Source of the DNA: a virus
Lineage: Duplodnaviria; Caudoviricetes
DNA length: 64,000 bases
Strand: one strand, 5' to 3'
IMG/VR virus record: IMGVR_UViG_2593339134_000001
The notes under the pieces: generated by a model
The model's input: only the letters and a program-made list of their open reading frames with translations
Database searches by the model: none
What the model was told of the DNA's origin: nothing
Shown: piece after piece, positions 18,635-57,810 of the stretch
Layout of the letters: each line of letters starts with the position of its first letter
How positions within the stretch are numbered: position 1 is the first letter of the stretch
Program-made: the position numbers and the translations under genes

Positions 18635-18811
18635 ATGCGCGATGGTTTGGGCGGTAGCACAAACCGGGTGGATTGCAATGGTGAATATTTACATTGAATC
18701 CGGTCGATAATTGGGTGGATTGGCTTTTCATTTTACTTGAATGGCATTTGACACGGGCATTTTGTTGGCTAACTTGTGGTTAGGCATAGACTTCGCGTGA
18801 ATTTCATAGCT

Positions 18812-20197
18812 TTACTTTTCAAGTAATTGTCTGCAGATATAACCAATCACATTGGTCAATTCGTTTTCAAATGGTCTAGTAACGTCGTCATGTCCTGTTT
18901 TGGCATGAACCAATTCATGGATCAATGTGCCGGCATAATCTGAAATTGTTTTCAGATTTTTTCGATCAATGACAATTGAATATGAATTTTCATCCCAGCA
19001 TCCAAGCGTTTCAACCCCAGAAAATAAATCTCTTCTCATCGTAGATGAGATTTTTATCTCCCTGACTTTTTTAGGCTTTCCACCGAAAATGTCAATTATT
19101 TTTTGAGTGTGTTGGTAGACAATTTTTTCTTTTTCGCTAAGATTTTCGAAATCGATAAAGTTGAATGTAAAGCTGTCGTTGTAATTTGAAATAAATTGCC
19201 CAATATCGACTATGGGATTCCCTGATAAATCTCTTGAGTCTTGAATTTTTAGCTTTAGATTTTCTGGTATCGTAATAATTTCATGACCACTATTTCTTGC
19301 TTGGTCAATCATGTCGGGATGCTGCATCGCCTCAAAAGAGGTTATAAAAAGATATTTCCCTTCTTGATTTAAGATTTTTACAGAATGTTCTTGAACATCA
19401 ATCCAACTCAACTCATCGTGGGCCGTTCCTGCGCTGATATTTGTCAAATCATTTGCGAGTATCTCAACAACTTCCTTTTTTGTGGATGACAATAATATTT
19501 TTTTAATTGAATCCGTATATGCGGTGCGTCCAACATTTGTCCGCTCTCTGTTCAGGGCTTTTTTAATTGAAGCATTTAATGTTGTAATGTTGTAGCTAAA
19601 TAAAAAATTTTCCTCTTCGGCAACTTTTACGCCATTTATATAAATATTTCCATGGCCTTTGCTGTGCTTAACGATCTGTCCTTGCTTTGTTGTTTCAATT
19701 ATTTCTTCACCTGAGAACTTTAAAAAAAGCTTTTTTGCGTCATCAATATCTTTGTCAGTAACTCCATTTAATTCAATTTCTGTACCCACAAGGTCGGGAT
19801 CGACCGCATCCTCAATTATTGCATGTAAAGTAACAATATCTTGGAATCCTTGTTTTTGTGATTTTGCAATTGTGATTCTACCATATTTTGATTTAGCGCT
19901 TACTATAATCTCCCTTCTATCAAAAGTTGCTAAAGCATCTTTTAAACCGATTCCAAACTTTCCAATTACGTTCGTACTAGCTAATTTCTCTTCGTTTTCA
20001 TTCTGAGTAAGGTGAGTATATTTTATGCCGCGCCCGAAGTCACGAATTATCCAAGAGTTTCCGCGCTTAAATATTTCTACATCCTTTGTTTTTGTCAAAA
20101 TCTGCTCATCAAGCGCATTAGCAATTATTTCTCTAATTGCATGATACGTTTCCCAATTTTCAAGAATTCTTTCAATATTCAAATCAAATTTTTTCAT
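18812..20197 (-). CDS. GHKL (HATPase_c-like) ATPase fused to an HExxH metallopeptidase-like domain
   Basis: 'REIIANALD', 'DFGRGI', 'IGKFGIGLK', 'GTEI'; C-terminal 'LIHELVH'; strongly AT-rich. Confidence 0.85.
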   Translation of the reverse strand: MKKFDLNIERILENWETYHAIREIIANALDEQILTKTKDVEIFKRGNSWIIRDFGRGIKYTHLTQNENEEKLASTNVIGKFGIGLKDALATFDRREIIVSAKSKYGRITIAKSQKQGFQDIVTLHAIIEDAVDPDLVGTEIELNGVTDKDIDDAKKLFLKFSGEEIIETTKQGQIVKHSKGHGNIYINGVKVAEEENFLFSYNITTLNASIKKALNRERTNVGRTAYTDSIKKILLSSTKKEVVEILANDLTNISAGTAHDELSWIDVQEHSVKILNQEGKYLFITSFEAMQHPDMIDQARNSGHEIITIPENLKLKIQDSRDLSGNPIVDIGQFISNYNDSFTFNFIDFENLSEKEKIVYQHTQKIIDIFGGKPKKVREIKISSTMRRDLFSGVETLGCWDENSYSIVIDRKNLKTISDYAGTLIHELVHAKTGHDDVTRPFENELTNVIGYICRQLLEK

Positions 20198-20466
20198 GTG
20201 TCTGCTCCTTGTTTTTGACGCATATTCTTGGAAACAGGGTATTACATGCCATCGTCCGCCCCATGTGGATAACTGGTGTTATGGCAAACCCAGCACTGGG
20301 TGCTGGACATCCTACACCCGTTCAACAATCCCAACAACTGTCGTCCATCGTATGGCGCACCCAAAACACAACCACCGTCACGAATCCAGGGCCGAAGCCC
20401 CGTTCCTGACCTCCAGGACAGGCGAGATCGCCGACACTGGAACCTCCACTGCCCGGATGAAGCCAT

Positions 20467-20865
20467 TCAGTTCAAAGCCCTATTCCCTACGCTGAGTAGC
20501 GTGTAAAACACGAAATAACCAAGCATTGAGAGAATGAAGAAGGCCGGGATCGTGGCAATCGCCCACTTCACCATCAGGAAAACCATGTCCCAAAATGGAA
20601 TGTCCACGCCAACAAGCACCACATCATTGGCGTTTAGCGGCCTTAGTTGAGTGTTGATTTTGATTGTAGATGATCCCCTTTCTTGGGTGGTTTCCGTATC
20701 CGGCGATTTGCCGCCTTTTGCAAGGGTGACCAATAGCGCCAGAATAACCAAAACTATAAAAATGACCAAGCCGAGCAATGGATTTGCGTGGGATTCGCCT
20801 GTATAGCCATACGAATAAGCCGGGGCTAGCAAAGACGCGATTATAAAAGCGGGATATGTTTTCAC
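20467..20865 (-). CDS. Membrane protein
   Basis: GTG 20865 with AGGAAGG RBS; signal-like N-terminus plus two hydrophobic segments. Confidence 0.6.
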   Translation of the reverse strand: MKTYPAFIIASLLAPAYSYGYTGESHANPLLGLVIFIVLVILALLVTLAKGGKSPDTETTQERGSSTIKINTQLRPLNANDVVLVGVDIPFWDMVFLMVKWAIATIPAFFILSMLGYFVFYTLLSVGNRALN

Positions 20866-21037
20866 GGCGAGCCTTCCTATGTTCGATGTGTCTTTGAATC
20901 CTAGTCGATACAGCGGACTGGTCAAGCCATAGGGACCACTTCCAGGAATAGTCACCAGCCCAACCGCGCCCTGGCGACTATTTGGACGAATAATCACCAG
21001 CCAGTGGTAGGTTCCCGCCGCATGATGCGCCGGCCCC

Positions 21038-21054
21038 GGTCGTGACTTCAAAAT
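21038..21054 (+). promoter_or_regulatory. Putative late promoter 1
   Basis: GGTCGTGAC-tt-CAAAAT; motif starts 47 nt before ATG 21085. Confidence 0.8.
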
Positions 21055-38934: not shown

Positions 38935-38966
38935 ATTACCCCCTTCGTTATTATGTTGGAATAAAT

Positions 38967-38986: not shown

Positions 38987-39045
38987 GCGTGAATGGCTTT
39001 GTTTAAAGCTGGGCGGGTGGGATTTTAAGCGGGGATTGGGGGGTT

Positions 39046-39684
39046 GGGGCCGCGTCCTTGCGGCGGGGGTTCCTCAGTGGAGCGGGAGGGATTCCTGGCG
39101 CGGGATGCGCGCCGCCAGTTGGTGGAAGGCCTTGTCGCGGATGGCGAGCGCGGCGCTGCCTTCGCCCAGCTTGGGTTCGGCCACGGCGGCCATGGCTTGC
39201 AGGATGGCGGCGGGCAGCTCCCGCCGTGTCTCGTGGACCGGGACGTGCAGGGTTTGCAGCAGGGCCAATTCCAGGTTGAGGCAGGTCCACCACAGGCGGT
39301 AGGCCTGTCCGTGGAAGGCTTCCAGCAGGTTCAGCAATTCGTCGAGGCGGTCGGCGGGGATGTCGCGGACGTTGCCGACGCCGAACTTGGCCCGGAGGTG
39401 GGTGTGGATGCGGGGGCTGATCTGCTGGTTGGAGCGGTTGAGGTAGCGCCCCAGGCTGCGGGTGTATTCGCCCACCACCCATTGCGCGATCTCGCCCAGG
39501 GGCGCGGGGGCGGGCTGGGCCGCTTCGGGGTGGACATAGCGCCCGGTCTTGCGGATGGCCGGGAGGACTTCCGCAGTCACCCACTTCTTGAACTTCTTGG
39601 CCTCGGGCTTGCGACTGGTGAGGATCAGGGAGTAGAGGCCGGATTCGTTGATGAGGGTCATTTCCTGGGGGCCGCCAGGGGTGT
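39046..39684 (-). repeat. 639-bp inverted repeat, left copy (partner 49110-49748)
   Basis: Reverse complement matches 49110-49748 almost exactly (one synonymous difference noticed). Confidence 0.95.
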
Positions 39685-39874
39685 GCATAGTATGCACTCC
39701 CTTTTCGTCATCATCTAAACGGCGCAGGTTGCTGGCTGGGTGGGCGAATTCGAGGACGGCGCAGACATCGTTTGCGACGAACCAAGGTTCGCCCTCAATG
39801 ACAAAAACGCGGATTTCGGTAGTGGTGTAGGGAAAAACGGTGGGTGCGGACGCACCTTGGGCGTGGTTGCTCAT
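39074..39874 (-). CDS. BRO-N antirepressor-like protein
   Basis: 'GEPWFVA.DVC..L', 'TPGG.QEM..INESGLYSLIL.SRKPEAK.FK.WVT.EVLP.IRKTG.Y'. Confidence 0.92.
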   Translation of the reverse strand: MSNHAQGASAPTVFPYTTTEIRVFVIEGEPWFVANDVCAVLEFAHPASNLRRLDDDEKGVHTMHTPGGPQEMTLINESGLYSLILTSRKPEAKKFKKWVTAEVLPAIRKTGRYVHPEAAQPAPAPLGEIAQWVVGEYTRSLGRYLNRSNQQISPRIHTHLRAKFGVGNVRDIPADRLDELLNLLEAFHGQAYRLWWTCLNLELALLQTLHVPVHETRRELPAAILQAMAAVAEPKLGEGSAALAIRDKAFHQLAARIPRQESLPLH

Positions 39875-39929
39875 GACAAGCTCCGATTGATTGCTACTTG
39901 GAGCCGCCGCGTCTCGCTGCTAAACGAGA

Positions 39930-40011
39930 TGGCGACGGGATGCACTGGGTTAGCAGACCGGCTCAATCGGACACCGGCAGACCTCGCGATCTCCCAGCGC
40001 ATCCCGCCATA
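39930..40011 (-). ncRNA. c4: C4-type (P1 c4 / P4 CI-like) antisense RNA
   Basis: Cloverleaf TATGGCGGGATGCGCTGGG-AGATCGCGAGGTCT-GCCGG..CCGG-TCTGCTAA-CCCAGTGCATCCCGTCGCCA; its CTGCTAA and CCGATTGA elements have complementary targets on both sides. Confidence 0.85.
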
Positions 40012-40024
40012 GAATGGGACCATA

Positions 40025-40060
40025 GGCACAAAAAAAGCGCCCATGGCAAAGAAGGCGCTT
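40025..40060 (-). terminator. Attenuator terminator in the C4 leader
   Basis: AAGCGCC..GGCGCTTTTTTT on the minus strand between the a1/b1 targets and the RNA. Confidence 0.65.
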
Positions 40061-40121
40061 GCGCACCGATTGAAATCTCAGGCTGCTAAACCCGGCCAGC
40101 GAAATTTACCGTGGCTGGGGT

Positions 40122-40151
40122 AGCGTAAGCGGATTTTTGGATTGGTGTCAA
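40122..40151 (-). promoter_or_regulatory. Sigma70-like promoter of the c4-antirepressor operon
   Basis: TTGACA-N18-TACGCT. Confidence 0.65.
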
Positions 40152-40274
40152 TGTGAATATTTACGTTGACGGGGAGGTGGGGGTGTTGCAGCCTTTTAAC
40201 TGACACATTCGTATAGCACTCCAAATCCGGGTGTTAGACGGCTAGCTAGCTATTATAGTAAGGCGCATTGGAAT

Positions 40275-40736
40275 ATGCCGGAAAACGAAGCTCTGAAATA
40301 TCTTGAAGATGAACTTGCTAAACAGGCTTTAAGCTTTGATGATAGCCGGAAATTCTATAGACGGAACTACTTCTACTATACATTAGCAACCGCCTCCCTA
40401 TCTGCGCTTACAACTATTCTTATTGGAATTGGGCAAAGTTATGAATCTAAATTACTCTCAGTAATTTCTCTTATAACTAGTGCAAGTATTACAGTTGTGG
40501 CGGCTTGGGACGGGTTTTTACGTTCACGAGAGCTATGGGTTCAAAAAACAGATACTTGGATGGCATTGCAGAATCTTGATGCGAATATTAAATACGCCAA
40601 AGCAAAATCTGGAGGGGTTCTCGCTGAGAGTCAAATCGATGATTTTTATCAACGCTTTGATAAAATCCTTATGGGAGAACATGAGCTTTGGAAGAAAGTT
40701 CGCAGCACACAAACTGAAAGCACGAAGAAATCATGA
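40275..40736 (+). CDS. SLATT/DUF4231-like two-TM protein
   Basis: Two hydrophobic helices then 'F....E.W......L..L....Y' and 'I...E...W'; AT-rich. Confidence 0.75.
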   Translation: MPENEALKYLEDELAKQALSFDDSRKFYRRNYFYYTLATASLSALTTILIGIGQSYESKLLSVISLITSASITVVAAWDGFLRSRELWVQKTDTWMALQNLDANIKYAKAKSGGVLAESQIDDFYQRFDKILMGEHELWKKVRSTQTESTKKS

Positions 40737-40909
40737 TGCATCGTAAGTTCGATAGGGTGTACATGTATATATACCCGCCGCATTCTAGCAGGTTAAACCA
40801 GCCTAAAACCCAACCCATACCCACCATGAAAACCGCAGACCTCAAGCGCTTGATGGGCGAGGTGCTGGCCTCCCTTCCGGCCCCCTATTCCGAACACATC
40901 ACATAACCC

Positions 40910-41548
40910 ATGCCAAATATAATCTATGTGCTTACCAATGAAGCCATGCCTAACATGGTTAAAATCGGGCTAACCAACGACAGCGTGGAAACACGGATTG
41001 CCCAACTCAGTTCGCATTCAGGTGTTCCGTTGCCGTTTGAGTGTTATTTCGCCGCTGAAGTCAATGACTGCGTCAAACTGGAAAAAACCCTCCATCAGCT
41101 TTTCTCGGAAAACCGCGTCAATCCAAAAAGGGAGTTTTTTAAAATCGACCCGGAAAAAGTGGTGCTTGCCATAAGCATCGGGGATTTTACGGAAGTCACC
41201 CCCGGAGTGGCCGAATTCGATAAGGAAGAACAAGCCGCCCTTGAGAAGGCAAAGGCGCGTCGTCCCAGGCTCAAGCTCGACGCTTTGGGCATCAAGCCTG
41301 GGGATGTCCTTACCTGCTCGCGGGATGAAACGCTTACCGCCACGGTAGTCGATGGCGGAAAAGTAGACTTCCAAGGGGAAACCCTTAGCCTTTCAGCGGC
41401 GGCCCTTAAGGCGCTCCATAGTCTGGGTTACAAAACACCTTCCGCAAGTGGTTCGGATTATTGGATATTCGATGGCGAATTGCTTGACGAAAGACGCCGC
41501 CGTATGGAAGCGGAGCAATTCGACGAAACTTTGCCCGTCAATGCCTGA
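40910..41548 (+). CDS. GIY-YIG (T5orf172-like) nuclease with RAMA-like C-terminal domain
   Basis: 'IYVLTN.AMP.MVKIG.T....E.R..QL...GVP.PF', 'EK.LH', 'REFF'; C-terminal 'V.F.GE..SLS.AA......SG..YW..DG..L...R'. Confidence 0.8.
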   Translation: MPNIIYVLTNEAMPNMVKIGLTNDSVETRIAQLSSHSGVPLPFECYFAAEVNDCVKLEKTLHQLFSENRVNPKREFFKIDPEKVVLAISIGDFTEVTPGVAEFDKEEQAALEKAKARRPRLKLDALGIKPGDVLTCSRDETLTATVVDGGKVDFQGETLSLSAAALKALHSLGYKTPSASGSDYWIFDGELLDERRRRMEAEQFDETLPVNA

Positions 41549-41760
41549 CTTGATATAGGCGTATATGGGGGACGCATTTTTCCCGTGCGTCGTTATCGCC
41601 GGTCCGCTGCTATTGCGCCGATACCCCTTGGCGGGCTTGATTATGCGGCATTGGAGGCGGGGCTAGATGGCTTTTAGTTTTTTAGCCTTCCCTGTCATGA
41701 GTAAGGTTCCGCCACCCGTCAGCGGTTTTGAAGACTTGTTTTCACATTAAAGGGATCAAC

Positions 41761-42222
41761 ATGCAGGATGGAAAACATGCCGGAAATGTCGTATTGCTCC
41801 GGGGCGCTACATTATGGATATTGATGGCTTTATTGCTGGCGTGGTGCATGGTGGGGCTATATCACAAAACACCCTACCTTGACGTGATATTCGCTGGTAA
41901 ATTCATGAGGCTATTGCAGGCGCACATCGATTTTCTGCTGATGAGCGCTCTAATTCTGGGGTTTTATGCCGCTAAAGTGCCACTGCCCTGGCATGTGTGC
42001 TGGGCCATGGTGGTAGGTGGATTCACCAATTCCAGCCTGTTTCTGTTGCAAGCCATTTTCCCCGCACTTGATCCTACAATGGCCGCTCAAGTGCCTTCGA
42101 TCGGCATCTGGTCGCAGGTGTTCGAAGTCTACCTCTTTGCCAGTCTCATCACGACCAGCTATGGCTTTGGCAAAGGGGCTGTGGTTATTTTTCGATCCAC
42201 GCTCAAGAGCAATACCCATTAA
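41761..42222 (+). CDS. Integral membrane protein (about 4 TM)
   Basis: Four hydrophobic segments, 'QAHID.L.M' His motif. Confidence 0.7.
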   Translation: MQDGKHAGNVVLLRGATLWILMALLLAWCMVGLYHKTPYLDVIFAGKFMRLLQAHIDFLLMSALILGFYAAKVPLPWHVCWAMVVGGFTNSSLFLLQAIFPALDPTMAAQVPSIGIWSQVFEVYLFASLITTSYGFGKGAVVIFRSTLKSNTH

Positions 42223-42243
42223 AAATTACCGAAAGGAAAAAAT

Positions 42244-42636
42244 ATGATAGGTATTTTTGGAGACCATTCTGGCCAATTTTTATCAATCGTGGGCTGGTTG
42301 ATTATGGTGGCTTTTGCCATACCTATCACCCTCTGGCCATTTCAGTGGGCAAAAGCGGTGGGATGGGAGATTCCGAATCAAACCGATTTAGCCCTATACT
42401 TCGGGCGATGTTTGGGTTGCGTGGGGGGCGCCGTTGCGTTATTTAGCATTTTGGCTGCGAACAGCCCGTTGGTGCAACCGTTCTATTTTAAACTCTTACT
42501 TACGATCTGGGCTTTAATGGTCATACTTCATATTTATGGAGCCATTAAGCAAATCCAGCCAGCTCTTGAAACCTATGAGATTGGTTTTTGGTTTGGATTG
42601 TTTTTACTCACGTTATGCTTTTTCCCAATCGGGTAA
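42244..42636 (+). CDS. Integral membrane protein (about 4 TM)
   Basis: AAGGA RBS; four hydrophobic segments. Confidence 0.7.
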   Translation: MIGIFGDHSGQFLSIVGWLIMVAFAIPITLWPFQWAKAVGWEIPNQTDLALYFGRCLGCVGGAVALFSILAANSPLVQPFYFKLLLTIWALMVILHIYGAIKQIQPALETYEIGFWFGLFLLTLCFFPIG

Positions 42637-42762
42637 TCAACAGGATGCCGGTGGATGGCAGGCCTGGAGCCTGGATTTTCCTCATGGGGTATCGGCCTCG
42701 CCTCACAGGCCGTTCCAGGGGACCCCGCTATCGCTCCCCCCCTGAACTCGGTCGTTAGGCAC

Positions 42763-43089
42763 ATGGAAACATCCCTCGTCCAAGCCGCCAAGCTTGCCAT
42801 TGTTAGCGCAACCGGGCTCTCGAAAGACGCGCTCCATATCTACGTCGGCCTGACAGTGTATTGGGTCACTACACTGGCGATTGGCAAACATACACGCGCG
42901 TTCCACCCTCTTCTGATCGTCGTGTTCATCGCCTGTCTCGGTGAAATGCTGGACATGCGCGACGACATTAGCAGCCTGGGGTATTGGCGGTGGAGCGCGA
43001 GCCTACATGACGTCGTCAACACTTCATTTTGGCCCTTCGTTCTATACCTCATCGGGCGCAGAGCTTCGGCTTTTTCTCGCCACGATTAG
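42763..43089 (+). CDS. Small membrane protein
   Basis: 'GLSKDALHIYVGL...GE..D...S..DV.NT.FWP'; start 3 nt after a GTTAGGC site. Confidence 0.65.
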   Translation: METSLVQAAKLAIVSATGLSKDALHIYVGLTVYWVTTLAIGKHTRAFHPLLIVVFIACLGEMLDMRDDISSLGYWRWSASLHDVVNTSFWPFVLYLIGRRASAFSRHD

Positions 43090-43304
43090 AGCGGCTCTCA
43101 TATCACTGTAGGGAATAGCCGCAATGCGCGACCAATAGCGGGCGTCGGCTAGGACGCTGGCGCACCGGGCCAGCGATGCCAAGCCGCCGGGGTTCCACCA
43201 TGCCTCAAGCACCTATCCGGCGGTGGTGCCCAGGATACTGATTTGCTCCCTGGGATACCGCCGGTCCGGGGGTATCCGATACCTGCGGACCGGCCAACAC
43301 ATAC

Positions 43305-47302: not shown

Positions 47303-48219
47303 GATGTGTAAACGTGGTTGATGGCGGTGCCGGTGCGGTCGTCGTCGATGCCCGAGAACACGAGGCCGGCCAGGGTTCCGGCGACGGTATAGACCGGGGC
47401 GTCGAACTCGCCTTCCAGGTATTCCACGGCGGCGGGGTTCCATGCCGCGCCCTGTAGCCCGGCGGTCTCGAAGACCGGCACATTGCCGGCCATCAGCGCC
47501 CGCAAGGCCCGGTGCAAGGTCACGCGCTCATCCGGGTTGAGGCTCCATGCCCCCACCTCGATGGTGACGTTCGCCAGCCAGCCGGTGCGTTCGGTGAATT
47601 CGTCCTCGCCGGACGCCACGTACCACACGGCGCCCATATCCAGGCCGACGGCGTGTTCGGCGGGCGTCTCCGACCGGAGTTGTACCGTCACGACCGGCCA
47701 GCGCGTGTGCGCGGCCTGCGGGGGGCCGGTCAATACGTCGATGCGGGTGGATTGCAGCGTGCCGGCCTGCGGCAGGAGTTCCCCACGGGCCACGTAGACG
47801 GCCAGCCCCTCGTCCAACCGGTCGCGGACCAGGAGGACGGGATTCAGGGTTGCATCGCGGAAGGTGGCACGGGGCGTGGCAACGGTGGTTTCGGCGTCCA
47901 GGGTCCACAAGACGCCGTTCCAGTAGTAGGCCCGGTAGTAATAGGTGACGCCGTTCAGCAGGGCTTGGTAGTCCAGCGCGGCCCGCTCGTCGCCGTCGTA
48001 GACGACCGAGGCGGCGGGGTCCACGGGCAGCGGGTCGCCGACATAGAAGGCGTTCGGGGCATAGGTGTTGGACGCGCCCCAATCGCCGGTTTCGGGCGGG
48101 GCCAGCCAGTCGTCGGTGGTCTTGCGGAGGACGATCCAGCGCCACGCGCCCACCGGGGGCGCGATGTATAGGCGGATGGCGTTGCCTATGGCGAGGGGTT
48201 CGGCGCGGGTGATGCTCAT
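47299..48219 (-). CDS. Tail terminator/completion-like protein with N-terminal FN3-like segment
   Basis: ATG 48219 just after the late promoter; 'L.NG.TYYY.AY', 'WP.VTVQL'. Confidence 0.65.
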   Translation of the reverse strand: MSITRAEPLAIGNAIRLYIAPPVGAWRWIVLRKTTDDWLAPPETGDWGASNTYAPNAFYVGDPLPVDPAASVVYDGDERAALDYQALLNGVTYYYRAYYWNGVLWTLDAETTVATPRATFRDATLNPVLLVRDRLDEGLAVYVARGELLPQAGTLQSTRIDVLTGPPQAAHTRWPVVTVQLRSETPAEHAVGLDMGAVWYVASGEDEFTERTGWLANVTIEVGAWSLNPDERVTLHRALRALMAGNVPVFETAGLQGAAWNPAAVEYLEGEFDAPVYTVAGTLAGLVFSGIDDDRTGTAINHVYTS

Positions 48220-48227
48220 GGGCGGGT

Positions 48228-48244
48228 AGGATGGCGTCACGACC
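48228..48244 (-). promoter_or_regulatory. Putative late promoter 6
   Basis: GGTCGTGAC-gc-CATCCT; motif starts 25 nt before ATG 48219. Confidence 0.8.
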
Positions 48245-48289
48245 CGACGCTGGGTTTGCGGGCATTGACGCCGCGCCGGTTCGGATATG

Positions 48290-48317
48290 AAAAAGCCCGG
48301 TCTAGCCGGGCTTTTTT
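48290..48317. terminator. Intrinsic terminator
   Basis: AAAAAGCCCGG-TCTAG-CCGGGCTTTTTT after the mnt-like gene. Confidence 0.85.
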
Positions 48318-48624
48318 ATTCGCGGTCATCAATGACCAGTGGCGTTCCGGGCTTAAGCTTGGATAGATCAACTGGATTCTTCCGTATCTCTTCCTCAAGG
48401 CGCTTGAAGTCTGCCCTCAGTTTTTCAGCAAGCATGGAGGCCAGGCGCTCCTCCTGATCCTTTGCGTATTCTTTCAACTCGCTCGCGGCGGGGGCATACG
48501 AAGCCTCAAGCCGAGCAACGATCTCGGCGTTCATGCTGCGCCGGTTTTGGTAGGCGGACTCCTCAATTCTTGCCTTCAAGTCTTCGGGCAAGCGGATTTT
48601 CATTTGGGGTGCTTCTCTACTCAT
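48316..48624 (-). CDS. Arc/Mnt-family repressor (paralog of 16874-17185)
   Basis: 'PQMKIRLP.DLK.RIE.SA..NRRSMNAEIVARLE.S'; shares 'FKRLEEEIRKNPVDLSKL'. Confidence 0.88.
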   Translation of the reverse strand: MSREAPQMKIRLPEDLKARIEESAYQNRRSMNAEIVARLEASYAPAASELKEYAKDQEERLASMLAEKLRADFKRLEEEIRKNPVDLSKLKPGTPLVIDDRE

Positions 48625-48713
48625 GCCCGAATAATACACCACGATGGTTCTTGCATGAATGAACCGTCGTGGTTTACGATAAACCACTCTGGTTCACTAT
48701 AAAGGAGCGAATC

Positions 48714-48890
48714 ATGACCACCGCAAAGTCGGCACCGTCAATGTCAGTGCGATTACCAAACGACCTAAAGGAATGGATTGCAGCGGAAGCTGGCCGGAAC
48801 TACCGATCTCTGAATGCGGAGATCGTGGTCCGACTAAAGCAGTGCATGGACGCCGAAAAGAGAAAAGCCCCAAGTGTTGCAACCACTTGA
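48714..48890 (+). CDS. Arc-family repressor (paralog of 16564-16770)
   Basis: AAGGAG RBS; 'VRLP.DLKEWI..EA.RNYRSLNAEIV.RLKQCMDA'. Confidence 0.88.
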   Translation: MTTAKSAPSMSVRLPNDLKEWIAAEAGRNYRSLNAEIVVRLKQCMDAEKRKAPSVATT

Positions 48891-48937
48891 GGCTTCGATG
48901 TGATGAACACTACCACTTCAAAAGTAGGTAACACCCT

Positions 48938-49720
48938 ATGAATCCTACCACAGCCTTCCAATTCCAAGAATCCCGCGAACTCCGCGTCATCATCGTTGAC
49001 GGTGAACCCTGGTTCGTCGCCAACGACGTTTGTGCTGTGCTGGAGCATGGCAACCCACGCCAAGTTATCAGCCGCCTGGATGACGATGAAAAGGGGGTCC
49101 ACAATGTGGACACCCCTGGCGGCCCCCAGGAAATGACCCTCATCAACGAATCCGGCCTCTACTCCCTGATCCTCACCAGCCGCAAGCCCGAGGCCAAGAA
49201 GTTCAAGAAGTGGGTGACTGCGGAAGTCCTCCCGGCCATCCGCAAGACCGGGCGCTATGTCCACCCCGAAGCGGCCCAGCCCGCCCCCGCGCCCCTGGGC
49301 GAGATCGCGCAATGGGTGGTGGGCGAATACACCCGCAGCCTGGGGCGCTACCTCAACCGCTCCAACCAGCAGATCAGCCCCCGCATCCACACCCACCTCC
49401 GGGCCAAGTTCGGCGTCGGCAACGTCCGCGACATCCCCGCCGACCGCCTCGACGAATTGCTGAACCTGCTGGAAGCCTTCCACGGACAGGCCTACCGCCT
49501 GTGGTGGACCTGCCTCAACCTGGAATTGGCCCTGCTGCAAACCCTGCACGTCCCGGTCCACGAGACACGGCGGGAGCTGCCCGCCGCCATCCTGCAAGCC
49601 ATGGCCGCCGTGGCCGAACCCAAGCTGGGCGAAGGCAGCGCCGCGCTCGCCATCCGCGACAAGGCCTTCCACCAACTGGCGGCGCGCATCCCGCGCCAGG
49701 AATCCCTCCCGCTCCACTGA
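48938..49720 (+). CDS. BRO-N antirepressor-like protein
   Basis: BRO-N motifs; C-terminal ~200 aa identical to those of 39074-39874. Confidence 0.92.
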   Translation: MNPTTAFQFQESRELRVIIVDGEPWFVANDVCAVLEHGNPRQVISRLDDDEKGVHNVDTPGGPQEMTLINESGLYSLILTSRKPEAKKFKKWVTAEVLPAIRKTGRYVHPEAAQPAPAPLGEIAQWVVGEYTRSLGRYLNRSNQQISPRIHTHLRAKFGVGNVRDIPADRLDELLNLLEAFHGQAYRLWWTCLNLELALLQTLHVPVHETRRELPAAILQAMAAVAEPKLGEGSAALAIRDKAFHQLAARIPRQESLPLH

Positions 49721-50492: not shown

Positions 50493-51889
50493 GCGGCGGC
50501 GCGGACGAACAGGAGGGGAATCGACTTTATCATCTTGGGCCTCCCGGAATGGTCGAGCACCTTATCCTTGAATTCGGCAAAAGGCATCGTGGTCACGGGG
50601 CCGAGGAAGCGCGGATCGTCGTAGTGGCCCAGATAGGCGGCGACGGCGCTTTCCTTGTCGGGAAAGCCGATCATGCACTTATCCTCGTCCCAGTCCTTCC
50701 AATTCCCGGCCTTGCGCTGGTGGACGATATAGACGCTCTCGGCGTCCTCGTCCGGGCCGACGTAGACATCGACAGGGTCGCCGTCCGGGGCCACGCCGAG
50801 GCTTCCCCGGATATATCCATAATCGTGTTTCATCTTGATCGACCACGCGTGGCCGTCCGGGTCCGTGCCGGAGCGGGTGGAACCGGCGGGATTCTCGATG
50901 CTGATGTCTAGACCACGGAAGCGGCGATGCCCTTTTTTGTAATTCCCGGCCTGGATTTGGGCTGCGGTGGGTTGGGCCTTGTGCAGGCTCATGTATTCCA
51001 AAATGGCCTTTGGCATGGGTTCGCCGTTGGCGTCCACGCCGCCTGAAAGCTTTGGCACATGCTTTAGGTTAACCCCATTGAATACGGACAAAAGGCGATG
51101 TATAGTTACGGTAGACCCGGAATGAGAGGGATGTACGACTTCGGCTGGATTAGCTGAAGTATCGAGTCCCGGTCCTACCGGGTCTTCCACCTTGCTTTTC
51201 AGCACAGCCACATCATAAAGCTTCAATCTAGCCATTTCTGGCGGTCCAGCTAACGATTCCCGCACCGTCAGCTTCACAGCATAAAGGTTCCCATTAACCT
51301 TTAATGGTGCCACGAAAGTATGGAATGCCTCCGTATCAGATACCCGTCTAGCATCTGGCGGATTCTTATCCAGCCAAACGGCGCGACGAACCAAGTGAGC
51401 CAATTTTTCCACCACTTGGGCATCCATTGGCGCTTTGATCCCAGAAAAAGATTCTCCCTTGCCCTCCGCAGTAAATCGGATTTTCCGATTCATGTCCAAG
51501 TTTAGAATCTCGTGGCCCTGCAAACGTTCGGCATATACGCGCCGGGCCATATTTTGCAATATCTTTAAATCGCCCTGCCACCCAGGTATAGACAAAGAAG
51601 TAATATAAGCTGATTTTACCGGAATTTCCCAATCCCCGAACCAAACCTTGAACTCGGGCGTCCGAACGAGATTCCACTGCGACTCATTCAAATTCGACGG
51701 CTTGCCATTCGGGGCCAACCGCGCGTGGGGCGGCGGATGACCGAAACCGCCCCTATCGTTGCGCTCGTGCGACGACCAATAGCCGCCATTATTGCGGTAA
51801 TACCCGCGCACATGGGTTTTGAGGAATAAAACGGGTATCACCATCGATTTCCGCAGGGGTAGGGATCGGTCGGGGAAAGGCATCTTCAT
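50489..51889 (-). CDS. Polyvalent protein: LPD3-like domain plus inorganic pyrophosphatase-like (InPase) domain
   Basis: 'LAPNGKPSNL...QW..VRTP.FK.WFGDWE'; 'F.APL..NG..Y.VKLTVRE'; 'PT.AQ..AGNYKKGH...GL.ISIENP.GS.R.G', 'YGYI', 'DGD.VDVY.G', 'DEDK.M.GF'. Confidence 0.85.
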   Translation of the reverse strand: MKMPFPDRSLPLRKSMVIPVLFLKTHVRGYYRNNGGYWSSHERNDRGGFGHPPPHARLAPNGKPSNLNESQWNLVRTPEFKVWFGDWEIPVKSAYITSLSIPGWQGDLKILQNMARRVYAERLQGHEILNLDMNRKIRFTAEGKGESFSGIKAPMDAQVVEKLAHLVRRAVWLDKNPPDARRVSDTEAFHTFVAPLKVNGNLYAVKLTVRESLAGPPEMARLKLYDVAVLKSKVEDPVGPGLDTSANPAEVVHPSHSGSTVTIHRLLSVFNGVNLKHVPKLSGGVDANGEPMPKAILEYMSLHKAQPTAAQIQAGNYKKGHRRFRGLDISIENPAGSTRSGTDPDGHAWSIKMKHDYGYIRGSLGVAPDGDPVDVYVGPDEDAESVYIVHQRKAGNWKDWDEDKCMIGFPDKESAVAAYLGHYDDPRFLGPVTTMPFAEFKDKVLDHSGRPKMIKSIPLLFVRAAA

Positions 51890-51901
51890 GGCCTGGATTC
51901 C

Positions 51902-53053
51902 TTATTTCCGTTTCAACAGGTTATCGAGATAGGCCGCGAACTGTGGATCGTCGTTGGGCTTGGCGTCCGGCAACTTGAGCCAAGTGCCGCGGCAATGGGG
52001 GTGCATGACGCCAGAAGCAAGCCACCAAAGCTCGTCCGGTTCTCGCGCTATCAGCACACCACCCACCCGCTTGCGGGGCGAGGCCGAGCGCCCGATGTTG
52101 GTTTTTCCGGCCCATATCATGGTCTCGCCGTCCAGCGGAACGGTATCGGGCGATACCACCTTCATGATCCGACCATCCACGCGGCGGCAGGCGCTACAAG
52201 CCCCCCGGTACATCTCCACCCGTTTGAGCCGGGCACTGGGCGGGAATCCCGCAACCATGCCCTGGTTCTGCATCTCCGCCGTTTCGGTCACGGCGATCCG
52301 CCGCCAATCGCGGTTCCACCGCCCGAATTGGTCCAGCAGTTCTCCCCGCAGGTCGTCCGCCTTGTTGCCCAGGCTGACCGCCTCCTGGTGCCCGACCAGC
52401 GTTTTGCGGATGGCGCTCCGCATGTTGTTGGTCAACTGGACGATGTTTTCCGCCGCCCTGGCCCGGCCATAGTCCAGCACGGCCCGCTGGACCTTCGTGG
52501 CTTCCAACTGTCGGGCCTGCCGCACCGCGTCGGCATCGAGGAGACGTTGCGCTTGCCGTTCGGTGATGTTCGCCATATTGGCCTGGACCCGCCCCATGAG
52601 CGTGGCCCGCGTCGCCAGCCAGTCGGCCTCGGCCACGAGTTGATCGTGCGGGAGGTAGCGCTGAAAGAGGTAATCCACCACCAGCATCCAGTCATCTAGG
52701 GCGAAGCGCTGGGGTGGGAGGGTTTCGAGGTAAAGCTTGGCGATGGATAGTTCGGCCCGGCTCCAGCGCCCCATCAGGCCGGGCCGTTCGACCGGGGCGC
52801 GGGTACCAGGCCGGTGCGGCTCGAACTTGAGCCAGCGGTCGAGTTCGGCCTGTAGCCCGGCGATTTGCATCAGGCCGCGCCGGGTGAAGCGCTCGATGAG
52901 ATCGCGCAGGAACGGCGAGTGGTGCGGCTCCCAGATGTCGCCGCCGGGCGGTTCATCGGAGATAGCCTTGTAGATGTGTTCAAGCGCCGCGTCGGTTTGC
53001 GCGGGCGTGAGTGTGGAAATGTCGAGAAGCGTGGCGGTGTCGGGGTCGATCAT
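51902..53053 (-). CDS. MuF/gp7-like minor head protein
   Basis: 'RDW.RIA.TE', 'AC..C', 'HPHCRG'. Confidence 0.8.
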   Translation of the reverse strand: MIDPDTATLLDISTLTPAQTDAALEHIYKAISDEPPGGDIWEPHHSPFLRDLIERFTRRGLMQIAGLQAELDRWLKFEPHRPGTRAPVERPGLMGRWSRAELSIAKLYLETLPPQRFALDDWMLVVDYLFQRYLPHDQLVAEADWLATRATLMGRVQANMANITERQAQRLLDADAVRQARQLEATKVQRAVLDYGRARAAENIVQLTNNMRSAIRKTLVGHQEAVSLGNKADDLRGELLDQFGRWNRDWRRIAVTETAEMQNQGMVAGFPPSARLKRVEMYRGACSACRRVDGRIMKVVSPDTVPLDGETMIWAGKTNIGRSASPRKRVGGVLIAREPDELWWLASGVMHPHCRGTWLKLPDAKPNDDPQFAAYLDNLLKRK

Positions 53054-53059
53054 GGCCCA

Positions 53060-53076
53060 AGGGTACGGTCACGACC
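53060..53076 (-). promoter_or_regulatory. Putative late promoter 7 (leaderless)
   Basis: GGTCGTGAC-cg-TACCCT-N6-ATG 53053. Confidence 0.8.
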
Positions 53077-53091
53077 TAAGCACCAGGATTT

Positions 53092-53289
53092 CTAATCGCG
53101 CTCTGCGTCGATTTTTTCCATCATCTTCCTAACTTCCGGTCCATCGATAATATACCCCCAGCTAATCGGTTTTTCCTTCCCGGCATCCGCATAGGGAATC
53201 CAACCTTTCCCGCCACCCACATAAACCTCAGTGGGGTTGCTACGGGATGGACCACGGAATAATGCACCTTCGTTTTCTATGAAAACCAT
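53092..53289 (-). CDS. Small protein coupled to the RelA/SpoT-like gene (candidate immunity protein)
   Basis: ATG 53289 overlaps the upstream 3' end; same lower-GC composition as the RelA/SpoT domain. Confidence 0.6.
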   Translation of the reverse strand: MVFIENEGALFRGPSRSNPTEVYVGGGKGWIPYADAGKEKPISWGYIIDGPEVRKMMEKIDAERD

Positions 53290-54671
53290 TTTCGTTTGCC
53301 TTTTTTCAGAATACACAACAACATTATAGACTTTTGAAGGTTTTGCTTCAAACCTTTCGCCCTATCCCAGGCTTCCGCATATAGCCTCTTTGATTCGCTT
53401 TGAGCATGTCTATACCTAGACTTATCCTCTTCATGCCAATGATCTTCTAGCCCAGTATCCGTCCCATACTTGGCGTGAATATCGCGAATCACATTATAAT
53501 GTTCATGTCCTGCGCTTTTCGCCGCCAATATATGTGACAGATGCAGCTGGATTTCCGCCAACATATCCGAACCTGGAACTTTTACGATCAACAGGGCGTC
53601 CCGATAACCTTCCGGCGTTGGATGCTGGAATCTATCCTTCGGGGCTTTGGCTAATTGGATGCCTGAGGCTTTCAAGCCTTCCACAACCTTATGAAGTTCT
53701 TCCACCGTGTCACATTTGATTGAAGCCCTAAGAACATCGCGGAGTTTTTTCCACTTCCCGGCGTAATCGGCTCGGACCTTTTGCCTAGCCCGCTCCTTAC
53801 CCTTTAATGGAGCAACCACTATCGCTGGCCCTTTAGCGCCCAATGCCTCCTCGACGCTTCCAGAAACTTTGCCCCCTATAATTTCCGCCACGTTTGCCAA
53901 TGCCTTTTTGAATTTTGGAAGAGCTTTTTCTGCCGAGGCATACAACTCGTTTTCGGTGTTATGTGGTTGGAATGCGTCTTCCGGTAAATCACTCACATCC
54001 CCGAACAGCGACTTATCTCTGCCCCCATTACCGGGATCAGCGGGGGGCTTCGATCCGCCACCACCACCATTCCCGGCCTTAAACCCTTTAACATCGTGCC
54101 ACTCGACCTTGTGAATGCCTCCGCGCTCGTCGTGGACCGTGGCGCCCTGTTCACCCACCGAATGCACCCGCCCCGACATGCCGCCATCGCCAAAATGCAG
54201 GGTATCGCCGGGCTCGATGTTGTGCGTGCCGTAGCCGAGTTTGGACCCGCGAGGCGGCTCAAGCTTTTTCTGCCGCTTGTCGTCGTACTCGTGGACATAG
54301 GTGCCATCGCCACGGATATAGCCCTTGACGTGGGATTTCAGGAACAGGATCGGGATAGCCTTCATCATCGCCTTTCCCCCATTGTCGCCGCCCTCTTTCT
54401 CGGCATGCCGCACGAACACCCGCCGCCCGCGCTTATCCTCGGCCAGGAAACCATCCTCACCCCGGTCCACCACCTTGAGGGCGTGTTCGGCCCGTTTGCG
54501 GTGGCCCTGGACATCCTCCCACGGCACCCGGCGCTTGCCCTTGGCGTGGTGGACTACACAGCCAGCGGTCCCGGCGGACAACACCTTGCCGGGCATGACG
54601 CCATGTTCGGGGTGGCGGAAGTAGAGTTCGTCGCCGGGGAGGGCTGTGGGGGTGGATTGCGCTGTCTTCAT
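53277..54671 (-). CDS. Two SH3/Tudor-like repeats plus C-terminal RelA/SpoT-like nucleotidyltransferase domain
   Basis: 'LK...RA..K', 'D..RA.I', 'GYRD', 'EIQ', 'H..Y' synthetase-like motifs; no HD hydrolase domain. Confidence 0.8.
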   Translation of the reverse strand: MKTAQSTPTALPGDELYFRHPEHGVMPGKVLSAGTAGCVVHHAKGKRRVPWEDVQGHRKRAEHALKVVDRGEDGFLAEDKRGRRVFVRHAEKEGGDNGGKAMMKAIPILFLKSHVKGYIRGDGTYVHEYDDKRQKKLEPPRGSKLGYGTHNIEPGDTLHFGDGGMSGRVHSVGEQGATVHDERGGIHKVEWHDVKGFKAGNGGGGGSKPPADPGNGGRDKSLFGDVSDLPEDAFQPHNTENELYASAEKALPKFKKALANVAEIIGGKVSGSVEEALGAKGPAIVVAPLKGKERARQKVRADYAGKWKKLRDVLRASIKCDTVEELHKVVEGLKASGIQLAKAPKDRFQHPTPEGYRDALLIVKVPGSDMLAEIQLHLSHILAAKSAGHEHYNVIRDIHAKYGTDTGLEDHWHEEDKSRYRHAQSESKRLYAEAWDRAKGLKQNLQKSIMLLCILKKGKRKWFS

Positions 54672-56491
54672 ACTTCGATCCGATAAACCGTCATGCCAAA
54701 ACTCTTGCCCATGGGTTCGCCCGACGGTTGTTGGGCACCACCCTTTTTGCCAGCAAATCCGGGCTTTCCGGCGGAATTCCCACCCGGTTGCCCCCCTCCC
54801 TCATCCTCCCCTTGATCGCCCGCCACGGGCCGCCTGGGCGGCTGTTTGCCACCGTCCGCACCACCGTCCGCGCCCTCGTCCGGCTCGCCCTCCCCATCCT
54901 CATCGAACCCTTCCCCGAAGTCCTGGGAGTCCTGCTGCTGCCGGGCCTGCTGCATCTGCACATACAGCCCCATCAAATTGGGATTCACCGGGGCCGCGCC
55001 CATCGTCGGGTCGGGGTGCTTATCCTGACCGTCCTGGGCCCGCATCTCGTCCACGGTCAGGTAGAGCTTCTGCCGCTCCTGCTTGGCCTGCCGATCCTCC
55101 TCGTCCAGGCCGGTCCAGCGGAACACATACTTCTCATCGAAGGTCGGCAGGATGAAATCGGAAAAGGTGTCCTCGTAGAACCGCAGGAGCGGGATCAGCC
55201 CTTTGTCCCGGCTGTTGGCCAGTTTTTCCCCGGTATCGTTGCCGTTGCCGATACCACCATTGCGGGAGCTGAACGACTCGAAGTTGATTTCGTCCGGCGA
55301 CATGCCGAAGATCGCGCACGAGATGGCCGTGAGGAAGGTCATCCATTTCGAGAAGTACATCTCGTTGAAATCGGCATTCAGCGGCGTATAGGTCGCGCCG
55401 GATTCCTTATCCTTGGCGGCCAGCACTGGCAGGGTCCATTTCTGGTTGATCCCCTTGACCATGGCGTTCCAATAGGTTTTGAACGCCAGCATGTCCTGCT
55501 TATCGAAATCCCCGTAGATTTGCAGCAATCCCTTCGGAATCGCGTTGTCCGTGAACCCGGTGATATTGAGGTTCATCGCGTTCAAGAACCCCGTCACCAC
55601 CCGGATCAACAAATCCACCTCCGACAGGCCGTAGCCACCCGAGGCCACGTTCGATACCGGGTTCCGGCACTGGTAGATCAAATCATCATGGGTGTAGGCG
55701 CAGCGGATGCGGGATTGGATGACTTGGAGGGCGAAGATTTCGTCGTGGCCTTGGTAGCCCGCCTCCGTGCAGAGCCGGATCGTGGCCCCGTCGATGGCAT
55801 AGAACCCATCCATCCCCAGGCGGGCATCGCGCTTCATTTCGGTTTCGATGGGCGCGGAATCCAGGGTCAGGCTATCCCGGACGCTCACCGCCATGAAGTC
55901 GCCCAGCGACGTGCGGCCCATGCGCTGGCGGGCGCGGGGATCGAATTCCCAGCCACAATTCGCCATGAACCGGGATAGGAGTCCGATGCCCTGCTTTTCG
56001 GGGCCGGTGAGCTTGTGGTCCTTGTCGCGGTGGCGGATGGCGAAACCCGGCCCCTCCCCGCTGTCGTTCTGGCGGGCGAAGCGGCGGACGTGGTTCAACC
56101 GGGTTTGGATGATGAGGCTGATCGGGGGCTGGGCAGCCATGGCCCGCAGGGTGTCGAAGCCGAGTTGCGAGGGCCGGTCGTAATACTCGCCCTGGATGCC
56201 GATTTGCCAGTCGTCGAGGCGGACGGACTTCATCCGCACGCCCTGGGCGTTCTCGCTCGGGAACGGCACGCGGACGGGGGCGGCGGCTTTCAGCAATTCT
56301 TGCCGGACCGCCTGTTCGCGCAGGTAATCCACCAGGATTTGCATGCTGTCGGGGCTGGAAAGCCCTTTGGCGAGGTCGCCGGCGGTGGGCGCGTAGGTTC
56401 GATGGAGTTCGCCGAGGGCGTCACGTCGCTCGCCGGGCGGGGCGCGGTCGTCGAAGGCTACGGATTGGGGGGGGTCGGGTGGGCGCGTCAT
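54668..56491 (-). CDS. Portal protein
   Basis: 'II.TR', 'RDSL..D', 'DGATIR', 'YGLSE', 'F.....P.G.L', 'M.F.KW..FL....CA.FG..P.EI'; acidic tail. Confidence 0.9.
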   Translation of the reverse strand: MTRPPDPPQSVAFDDRAPPGERRDALGELHRTYAPTAGDLAKGLSSPDSMQILVDYLREQAVRQELLKAAAPVRVPFPSENAQGVRMKSVRLDDWQIGIQGEYYDRPSQLGFDTLRAMAAQPPISLIIQTRLNHVRRFARQNDSGEGPGFAIRHRDKDHKLTGPEKQGIGLLSRFMANCGWEFDPRARQRMGRTSLGDFMAVSVRDSLTLDSAPIETEMKRDARLGMDGFYAIDGATIRLCTEAGYQGHDEIFALQVIQSRIRCAYTHDDLIYQCRNPVSNVASGGYGLSEVDLLIRVVTGFLNAMNLNITGFTDNAIPKGLLQIYGDFDKQDMLAFKTYWNAMVKGINQKWTLPVLAAKDKESGATYTPLNADFNEMYFSKWMTFLTAISCAIFGMSPDEINFESFSSRNGGIGNGNDTGEKLANSRDKGLIPLLRFYEDTFSDFILPTFDEKYVFRWTGLDEEDRQAKQERQKLYLTVDEMRAQDGQDKHPDPTMGAAPVNPNLMGLYVQMQQARQQQDSQDFGEGFDEDGEGEPDEGADGGADGGKQPPRRPVAGDQGEDEGGGQPGGNSAGKPGFAGKKGGAQQPSGEPMGKSFGMTVYRIEV

Positions 56492-56497
56492 GCGCCC

Positions 56498-56514
56498 AGT
56501 GTCATGTCACGACC
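56498..56514 (-). promoter_or_regulatory. Putative late promoter 8 (leaderless)
   Basis: GGTCGTGAC-at-GACACT-N6-ATG 56491. Confidence 0.8.
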
Positions 56515-56837
56515 TGGCGGGCGGGGCCGCGTCCTTGCGGTGGGAATCCCTCAGTGGAACAACCGCTCCTGGACATCGGCTCTCGGATGCTTCTACGGTC
56601 TACCGGGGGTCGTCGCGCATCCGTGCGCTCCTTCTCGGATAAAAATAAACAAAAGGGCGCGGAATGCGCCCTGGGTTTTGTCCCTGGGTTATGGCACGGC
56701 CAAGCCCTTGAATTATCTGGCTTGCCCGGTTGTGCCAAAATTCCTGAGTTTTGACATGAATCATTTTTTATGTAACGTCTAGTTAGACTGGGGTCGAACT
56801 ATTAATTCAAATTGCACTTCTATACAATTTACTACGA

Positions 56838-57647
56838 TTAGTTATCGGTATTATGTTCTTCATTGAAGATGGCTTTTTTATTTTTGTTATCTAAATCTGA
56901 GATCGTTTTTTGATTGTGCAAATAACGTTTTAAAAGCTTAATAAAAAAGTCATCGCCAAACATTCGGTCAAATTCTGTGAAATTCGCCATTCGATTGAGG
57001 ATAAATTTTGCTTCCGCTTCGGATGTTGATTTATATAACCTTGCTAGGTCTTTGCGGATTTGAAACTTAACTTCAAAATTAATTTTGTTTGTATAAGATG
57101 AAAGCGTATAGTCGAAATCATGGTCTCTATATGATAATGAATTAGCTTCATTGTCAATCGGCACTATGATAGCATCTACCCAGTCACTACCATCCAATAA
57201 AATACTATAAGGGTCATTTGTCTTCAATTGATGGCTTTGCGTTAAAGATAAAGGTTCTGATAATAAAGGTCTAGCTGCAATTTTAATAAATTCTCCAATA
57301 TAATTATTTTTTATATTAAACTCGCTAAACTTATTTGAATTCGTCCTTGAACACATGGCAGATAGCCCAAAAAAATATAAGTCAACTTGGCTGATTTTTG
57401 GATTTGGAAGAAAAAAGCTTTGAACTATTTCAACACGCATCCCATAAGATTTATAGCATTTATTATCAAAACCACATACTGCATTATCAATACTTGTGTA
57501 CCCAACAACCTTTCCAATGAAAATATACTCTTCTGGATCAACTTCTTTATGACTTCTGAGTTCGCCTATTTTACATCCATACGCAAGGCAAGGGAGCATT
57601 GCCATTATGGATAATAAAGTTATTATTAACTTAACCATATTTATCAA
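56838..57647 (-). CDS. AT-rich exported hypothetical protein (moron)
   Basis: Signal-peptide-like N-terminus; very low GC; exact start uncertain (ATG 57641). Confidence 0.7.
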   Translation of the reverse strand: MINMVKLIITLLSIMAMLPCLAYGCKIGELRSHKEVDPEEYIFIGKVVGYTSIDNAVCGFDNKCYKSYGMRVEIVQSFFLPNPKISQVDLYFFGLSAMCSRTNSNKFSEFNIKNNYIGEFIKIAARPLLSEPLSLTQSHQLKTNDPYSILLDGSDWVDAIIVPIDNEANSLSYRDHDFDYTLSSYTNKINFEVKFQIRKDLARLYKSTSEAEAKFILNRMANFTEFDRMFGDDFFIKLLKRYLHNQKTISDLDNKNKKAIFNEEHNTDN

Positions 57648-57810
57648 AGTATCTTATCATCCCAAATAGCATGGTTTTAAGCCAGCGTCTAACACCGCCC
57701 CTGCGGATAACGGGCGTTATGTCCAAAAGCGGCGCAGGCTGCCCAATAATCCCACACCCGCCCAACGGTCAAGCTCCGGCCAAACCGCCTAGCCCCGAAC
57801 CAGCCCAGCG

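Follow-up and report, generated by a model that had tools for sequence, protein, structure and literature searches.

Unrelated AT-rich genes enclosed by one flank pair in a prophage: candidate integron cassettes in a shared landing pad

Introduction

Integron cassettes are usually seen as stored beside their integrase, and attC sites are imperfect hairpins of ~57–141 bp with R''-L''...L'-R' boxes. Here we describe a 64,000-nucleotide stretch of viral DNA (Duplodnaviria; Caudoviricetes; IMG/VR record IMGVR_UViG_2593339134_000001; hereafter the window) in which two AT-rich genes are enclosed by the same pair of flanks. With moderate confidence, we read both genes as integron-type cassettes gained by horizontal transfer, each occupying a copy of a landing pad that lacks an integrase gene of its own. 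The pad consists of an 'up' element on the 5′ side of the gene and, on its 3′ side, a 'down' element with a GTTA-headed half-site and a res-like site.

Four described systems come close, each compared here as far as the available parts of the cited sources describe it. The nearest is the insertion of cassettes by the integrase at GWT (attG) sites outside integrons (bioRxiv 10.1101/2022.09.11.507474, Loot et al.), after which, as these authors propose, attC is lost by replication slippage (bioRxiv 10.1101/2022.09.11.507474). The window resembles it in having cassettes far from intI and attI, a G/TT junction (the slash marks the crossover point throughout) and an integrase elsewhere in the genome, and later attC loss would be expected. 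It differs in that a single conserved multi-copy pad beside a res-like site takes the place of scattered GWT sites, and that this pad is reused on plasmids and a prophage and can hold tandem cassettes.

Cassettes with truncated attC sites or with 14–18 nt attI fragments are also on record, and the attI-fragment cassettes that were tested are recombined by IntI1 (PMC12901181). They share with the window a short site ending in G/TTRRRY in the place of attC. However, they lie in integron arrays and derive from attI1 or attI2, whereas the window sites are RYYYAAC-N5-GTTA, made of the end boxes of host attCs, and lie in a prophage.

In the Tn3 family, accessory genes abut res site I and the recombinase gene lies beside subsite III (PMC7157771), and two plasmid-like contigs studied here, C1 and C3, carry toxin-antitoxin pairs at that position. 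In contrast to that family, neither a Tn3 transposase nor terminal repeats were noticed in the parts that were read, with no search aimed at them, and the res-like copies of the window are orphans. The Acinetobacter pdif modules are likewise small accessory modules between short recombinase sites and spread over plasmids (PMC6449649, PMC7399989), but their sites are those of XerC/XerD, whereas the junction evidence here points to IntI. A resemblance to a Xer site is seen in the spacing ATAA-N6-TTAT of the palindrome in our 5′ flank.

Results

The flank pair and its cargo

The genome that holds the window is called G000 and its sister genome G001; C-numbers are contigs and L-numbers are loci. 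The same flank pair, in the same relative arrangement, encloses unrelated AT-rich cargo at six places in the two genomes:

18773–20272, bracketed cargo, window locus 1
56776–57692, bracketed cargo, window locus 2
~13494–14345 of G000:C5, bracketed cargo
~1176–2433 of L017, bracketed cargo of the G001 prophage
G001 plasmid contig C6, bracketed cargo twice in tandem

The genes enclosed in the window are the following:

18812–20197, minus strand, cargo 1, 461-aa protein, 34% GC, N-terminal HATPase_c_3 (GHKL ATPase) domain (Pfam E 2.3e-6)
56838–57647, minus strand, cargo 2, 269-aa predicted lipoprotein, 32% GC, lipoprotein-like signal sequence at the start

Their ~32–34% GC compares with 63% for the G000 genome. 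An earlier, sequence-only reading of the window had held that two unrelated genes in the same orientation lie between matching flanks. The letters of its four flank stretches are confirmed, both genes are on the minus strand, and one encodes a GHKL domain with an HELVH motif (near the C-terminus, as read from the translation), the other a lipoprotein-like signal sequence. Each gene is present in one of 61 genomes searched, namely G000 itself. Cargo 2 matched no known family, and neither protein gave a PADLOC match.

It is extremely improbable that the motifs match merely by chance in zones of AT/GC transition. The 5′ palindrome is weak when taken alone because 17 of 100 shuffles reach the two matches seen: with up to 2 mismatches allowed, GGATAACNNNNGTTATG has two matches in the window, both exact (20267–20283 and 57705–57721), and a mean of 0.74 in the shuffles. 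Chance fails on the 3′ side, where TTTGACA-N16-TAAC-N5-GTTAG has two window matches versus 0.02 expected (two reached in 0 of 100 shuffles), and nhmmer finds further 'down' copies at E 1e-14 to 1e-30. The shorter YTAAC-N5-GTTAS marks the same two 3′ flanks, with two window sites versus 0.04 expected.

The similarity of the two window loci extends over ~75 bp on the 5′ side, including ATCCYACACCCGYYCAAC at 20309–20326 and 57749–57766, and the 3′ side of the second locus holds a ~100-bp element common to other replicons. The motifs first noticed are the exposed ends of flanks that are conserved over a greater length.

The cargo elsewhere is varied. The C6 array is made up of immune-type genes, which encode two dynamin-like GTPases, a TIR protein and, with its TPR partner, an NB-ARC/STAND NTPase; the C5 cargo has a weak LmuA match (PADLOC); and the G001 prophage has a different cargo in the same slot between the terminase and portal genes. 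On the small plasmid C1, an AT-rich cargo (L102 1084–2257 = G000:C1:5583–6756) with a retron-type VI reverse transcriptase (PADLOC E 1e-98) and a helix-turn-helix protein adjoins an isolated 26-bp site-I-like repeat.

Integron junctions at the same element

Canonical attC ends meet the 'down' element three times, all in G001, and all three join it at the G/TT of GTTA: C6 cassette 1, C6 cassette 2b and the last cassette of G001:C1:385–388 kb. These three ends are what off-platform insertion predicts, namely an attC-bearing cassette whose junction with non-integron DNA lies at GWT; the window cassettes have the junction motif only. The likeness to integron core sites pointed out from the letters is not cosmetic, since cassettes with a canonical attC are joined to this very 3′ element at G/TT.

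The pad junction of C6 was used as a blastn query of PLSDB, and the only matches were one Methylomagnum ishizawai record and a Pseudomonas aeruginosa attC. Over 55 nt, the attC of C6 cassette 1 shares 96.4% identity with the dfrA39 attC, which belongs to a class 1 integron on p4130-KPC, a plasmid of Pseudomonas aeruginosa. The identity runs through the attC and ends right after GTTA, the canonical crossover point. Past GTTA, C6 continues with the GTTA-headed half-site and then the res-like repeat.

A profile hidden Markov model (HMM) was built from 27 attCs of the array in G000 and covers host-type attCs only. Among its G001 matches are attCs within the C6 array that split the 'cargo 2' of this array into two cassettes. 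The other G001 array, at G001:C1:384500–388000 (L117 + L018), has a truncated intI (~first 41 residues), attI and four attCs, the last of which joins the 'down' element at G/TTATCC.

IntI was searched with TIGR02249 at its curated cut-off of 265 bits. The scores are 487.6 bits for G000 and 447.7 bits for G001, and none of 14 control genomes passes the cut-off. The sequence-only reading had placed a recombinase outside the window, and the IntI of G000 is the candidate, at G000:C8:2846381–2847325 in an open frame of 363 aa, 2.07 Mb away. Beside it, small AT-rich minus-strand open reading frames (ORFs) are separated by attCs that begin with GCCTAAC and end with GTTAGGC. The attC HMM finds 33 sites in G000, 29 in this array and 4 in a separate cluster without integrase.

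The whole G000:C8:2826000–2847325 region is a chromosomal integron with intact intI, attI and 29 attCs of ~90 bp, and a transposase-like ORF comes next at its far end. The cluster of four attCs without integrase lies at G000:C8:3259314–3260778.

Ends of the window cassettes

Each window cassette ends in a short RYYYAAC-N5-G/TTA site in the place of an attC, as cassettes with truncated attCs or short sites do. The sites and the putative cassette ends are as follows:

18767–18785, no strand assigned, 19-bp short site GGCTAAC-TTGTG-GTTAGGC (gene strand GCCTAAC-CACAA-G/TTAGCC), probable junction between 18772 and 18773 (TAA/C)
56770–56788 (within 56762–56788), no strand assigned, short site ATGTAAC-GTCTA-GTTAGAC, junction between 56775 and 56776 (TAA/C)
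57687–57693, no strand assigned, core site GTCTAAC (gene strand G/TTAGAC), likely 5′ end of cassette 2

The GCCTAAC and GTTAGGC of the short sites are the end boxes of the host integron attCs, and their 5-nt spacing is that of the spacer between the first two boxes of host attCs. On the plus strand, all four putative junctions read TAA/C: GGCTAA/C and GGATAA/C for gene 1, and TGTAA/C and GTCTAA/C for gene 2, or GGATAA/C if the 5′ end of its cassette is placed at the palindrome.

The GTCTAAC at 57687–57693 is perfectly complementary to the box at 56782–56788, and such a match within the ~110-nt leader has a roughly estimated chance of ~0.007. The complementarity suggests that the two boxes of cassette 2 belong together, and the cassette would extend over 56776–57692, or 917 bp.

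The 3′ flank and the serine recombinases

The features of the 3′ flanks in the window are as follows:

18741–18773, plus strand, right-arm pad remnant at the GHKL locus, aligned with 10 other 'down' copies
18758–18773, GTTA-headed half-site CATTTTGTTGGCTAAC at the GHKL locus, read on the other strand
56685–56758, no strand assigned, orphan res-like site of ~75 bp with three putative subsites (nhmmer and site scan)
56731–56758, cargo-proximal subsite I, TGTGCCAAAATT-CCTG-AGTTTTGACATG, a 12-4-12 inverted repeat
56762–56776, GTTA-headed half-site CATTTTTTATGTAAC at the cargo 2 locus, overlapping the short site at 56770–56788

Profile searches of the whole genome match the 'down' element at C8:4510612 and on three plasmid-like contigs, C5, C3 and C1. 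When 11 'down' copies are compared, their homology is lost within 3 bp of the outer edge of the last half-site. A 28-bp 12-4-12 inverted repeat makes up the cargo-proximal part and is clear in 8 distinct copies (10 matches in the site-I repeat scan, two being repeats of the same plasmid unit), whereas the putative subsites II and III come from reading by eye. The GHKL locus keeps no more of site I than its cargo-proximal half, with TTTGACA at 18747–18753. This TTTGACA, first taken as part of the cassette site, is the outer half of the 28-bp repeat and hence a serine-recombinase half-site of the 'down' element.

On C1, C3 and the Methylomagnum ishizawai plasmid pRS11DPr7, small serine-recombinase genes directly follow the 'down' element, which is ~100 bp long and has its crossover subsite distal to the gene. 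The recombinase on C1 and C3 begins with MKIGYARVST, and that of C3 matches Gin invertase (E 7e-45) and gamma-delta resolvase (E 1e-31). The remaining four recombinase genes of G000 have upstream regions unrelated to the element, and no recombinase gene adjoins the orphan res-like copies of the window. The 3′ flank is thus probably a res-like site of plasmid-borne small serine recombinases, to which these would bind.

The same anatomy can be turned against the integron reading. The window cassettes may have arisen without an integron integrase, plasmid serine recombinases swapping cargo at res site I or homologous recombination acting across the flanks of 80–170 bp. The adjoining recombinase genes on C1, C3 and pRS11DPr7 speak for it, as do the homology between G000:C8:4510612 and G001:C1:387816, which ends at the site-I centre and leaves a hybrid site, and the half-site-like TATGNCAAA of the 'up' element. 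Module exchange at res site I is also described for Tn3-family transposons, in the available part of the source (PMC7157771).

However, in both window cassettes the 'up' and 'down' sites have different central bases, the 'up' site has a poor second half, and the canonical attC-GTTA junctions and the core-site boxes at the cassette ends are left unexplained. We therefore consider this explanation possible, if unlikely. Excision by a serine recombinase between directly repeated sites had been considered as the main model and was dropped because of the differing central bases in both window cassettes.

The res-like site was also sought more widely with a core pattern, which gave no relative in collections that may lack records close to this genome. 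The viral collection gave no matches; the genome collection gave 18 loci, judged unrelated by the organisms in their titles, with the sequences unread; and 6 metagenome loci were read, of which 4 are a terminator adjoining a tRNA end and all 6 match the res-like profile across only ~30 bp. A genome-wide scan with single half-sites was too noisy, with 47 and 20 matches that nearly all lie in unremarkable GC-rich sequence. At E up to 1, Rfam scans of the two loci (6 kb and 3.5 kb) gave nothing at the flanks and one sub-threshold match inside the GHKL gene.

On C1 and C3, profile and motif matches recur at constant offsets of 12,020 bp (C1) and 18,650 bp (C3). Both contigs seem to be longer than a single unit of a circular plasmid, but their repeated parts are not letter-identical.

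The 5′ flank and its possible regulatory role

The features of the 5′ flanks are as follows:

20215–20283, no strand assigned, 5′ leader of the GHKL gene, then CCGCCCC (20256–20262) and the palindrome GGATAAC-TGGT-GTTATG (20267–20283)
20284–20440, no strand assigned, GHKL 'up' element, part A to ~20330 and part B ~20331–20440
57695–57768, no strand assigned, second-locus 'up' element with CCGCCCC, the palindrome GGATAAC-GGGC-GTTATG (57705–57721), the half-site TATGTCCAAAAG and ATCCCACACCCGCCCAAC (57749–57766)

The 'up' element spans 75–170 bp and ends in TTTGNCATAAC-N4-GTTAT. It is also found on C5, on C3 and at C8:1554693 in G000, and in G001 in the same prophage and on two plasmid contigs. 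Among 9 'up' copies, homology stops 0–3 bp past GTTAT in the three informative pairs (C5-C6up1, C5-G001a and G001a-exp). The GHKL leader is common to two plasmid cassettes of G001: the subgroup of GHKL, C6up2 and C7 has a leader of ~70 nt in common, and GHKL and C6up2 share a block at +28 to +54 (blastn-short). Part A of the GHKL copy holds the half-site TATGGCAAACCC and ATCCTACACCCGTTCAAC, whereas part B is a separate repeat that occurs elsewhere in the genome too. The second-locus copy ends where identity to the sister prophage resumes, at 57769.

The flanks may instead be conserved as regulation only, with a promoter and an operator upstream, a terminator and a res-linked promoter downstream, and the cargo brought in by unrelated events. 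By eye, part A reads TTGTYG-17-TAGGAT in 5 of the 9 'up' copies and G001a reads TTGACA-16-TATAAA across the palindrome, and a promoter-like TTGRCA-N15/16-GATAAW lies within the res-like site. A strict promoter scan, however, calls one of the 9 copies at the half-site and one at part A, neither being a window copy. Nor does regulation account for the sharp homology ends at GTTA or for the flank pair recurring round unrelated cargo on four replicons, so we hold it to be improbable.

The region C8:1554693–1556688 was first taken as a fourth pair with a cassette. Its 'down' match is spurious, made up of a terminator and a fragment of a tRNA, which leaves the 'up' element as the one real part. This element belongs to a 2.1-kb islet (G000:C8:1554500–1556660) that also has a secreted lipase-like gene (GHSLGG motif) and is flanked by two direct repeats resembling tRNA 3′ fragments.

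A repeat of ~60–70 bp starting with AAAACACCACCACCGTCACCGAATCC occurs at window 20331–20440 and at G000:C8:714424–714474, 3307236–3307284 and 3316116–3316168. It adjoins GC-rich hairpins in prophage-like regions, and one copy lies ~450 bp ahead of the window start.

The prophage setting

The domain scan identifies the window as prophage DNA, with tail, portal, large terminase, polyvalent-protein, Bro-N and Arc-like genes. The cargo 2 gene lies between the portal gene and a 76-aa ORF that comes after the terminase gene. The second module adjoins a feature of the phage backbone:

56654–56672, no strand assigned, bidirectional terminator-like hairpin

We surveyed 54 IMG/VR loci with a related portal gene (L037–L090), 24 of which also have a terminase match. 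In these 24 the gap between terminase and portal varies from 35 to 4358 bp (≤200 bp in 12 and >1 kb in 9), so this junction (window 56491–58060) is a general, variable accessory-gene slot in distant relatives of the phage.

The window has more islands of lower GC, at 38000–43100, 48000–49500, 50500–54700 and 62000–63500, which encode HicB-like, DUF4231, T5orf172, RelA/SpoT-like, LPD3-pyrophosphatase and H-NS/HU-like genes. The motif pair flanks none of them.

Discussion

The integron reading that we favour can be put as a sequence of steps. Copies of the pad are carried by plasmids, by this prophage and by the chromosome of this genus. IntI, encoded elsewhere in the genome and acting in trans, would insert cassettes at G/TT beside the res-like site, and each insertion would split the pad into the two flanks seen. 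We infer such an action of IntI at both window loci. The 19-bp RYYYAAC-N5-G/TTA sites may be attCs that lost their inner hairpin by deletion after the insertion, or they may be short attI-like sites. Either origin would leave the genes largely fixed, and no sign of present-day excision or mobility was found.

Several observations weigh against this reading. The attC HMM, limited to host-type attCs, places none of its 33 matches in the window. Minimum-free-energy folds of the window cassettes give small local hairpins and no long one, whereas the control attCs C6-1 and L018 fold long. The 3′ end of the GHKL cassette has the host-type GCCTAAC, but its 5′ end lacks TTAGGC. The C6 array cassettes start at G/TTAGGC, 78 nt and ~196 nt downstream of the palindrome. 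The palindrome is hence part of the pad and not a crossover site, contrary to the role first given to ATAAC-N4-GTTAT.

Further points of this kind come from the distribution of the pad and from the sister prophage. At BLAST sensitivity, the pad is found in 2 of 61 genomes, G000 and G001, and in none of the other 59, so its copies are not independent. The search once proposed for other flanked genes and for empty sites produced the former in both genomes, but the profile searches show no empty pad in either. At the GHKL position of G001, window 14818–20997 is replaced by other DNA without pad elements, with no comparable allele or empty site. At the second locus, identity between the G000 and G001 prophages is 100% as far as window 56684, and similarity returns from 57769. 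The module in between differs along its whole length, including the res-like part, which is ~82% identical. As the whole module including the res-like site is swapped, this difference is silent on the insertion chemistry, and ordinary recombination in the phage backbone can account for it.

Part of the first idea of a single-gene cassette capture system with an outside recombinase stands. The cassette behaviour (one flank pair round unrelated cargo at six places in two genomes), the link to integrons and the recombinase beyond the window are borne out. What falls is a stand-alone system with minimal sites of its own, as most of the flank sequence belongs to the landing pad and not to the cassettes.

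A more far-reaching version makes the pad a dedicated, portable docking site without an integrase gene, an attI-like site fused to a res-like one and carried about by plasmids and phages. The chromosomal IntI would load it in trans with cassettes, many of them anti-phage genes, and the serine recombinase would move it, once loaded, between replicons, the 19-bp sites being working minimal sites and not decayed attCs. We put this forward only tentatively and think it rather unlikely.

Experimental proof of off-platform insertion is recent, and the insertions seemed to be scattered. In the present case one conserved target beside a res-like site serves repeatedly, on plasmids, in the terminase-portal slot of a prophage and on the chromosome. 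If the pad is a dock loaded in trans, it would link the sedentary integron as a gene bank with plasmid resolution systems and the accessory-gene slots of phages. The anatomy hints at a way in which an integron on the chromosome could supply mobile elements with foreign genes. If true, this would be a route by which cassette genes leave the chromosome.

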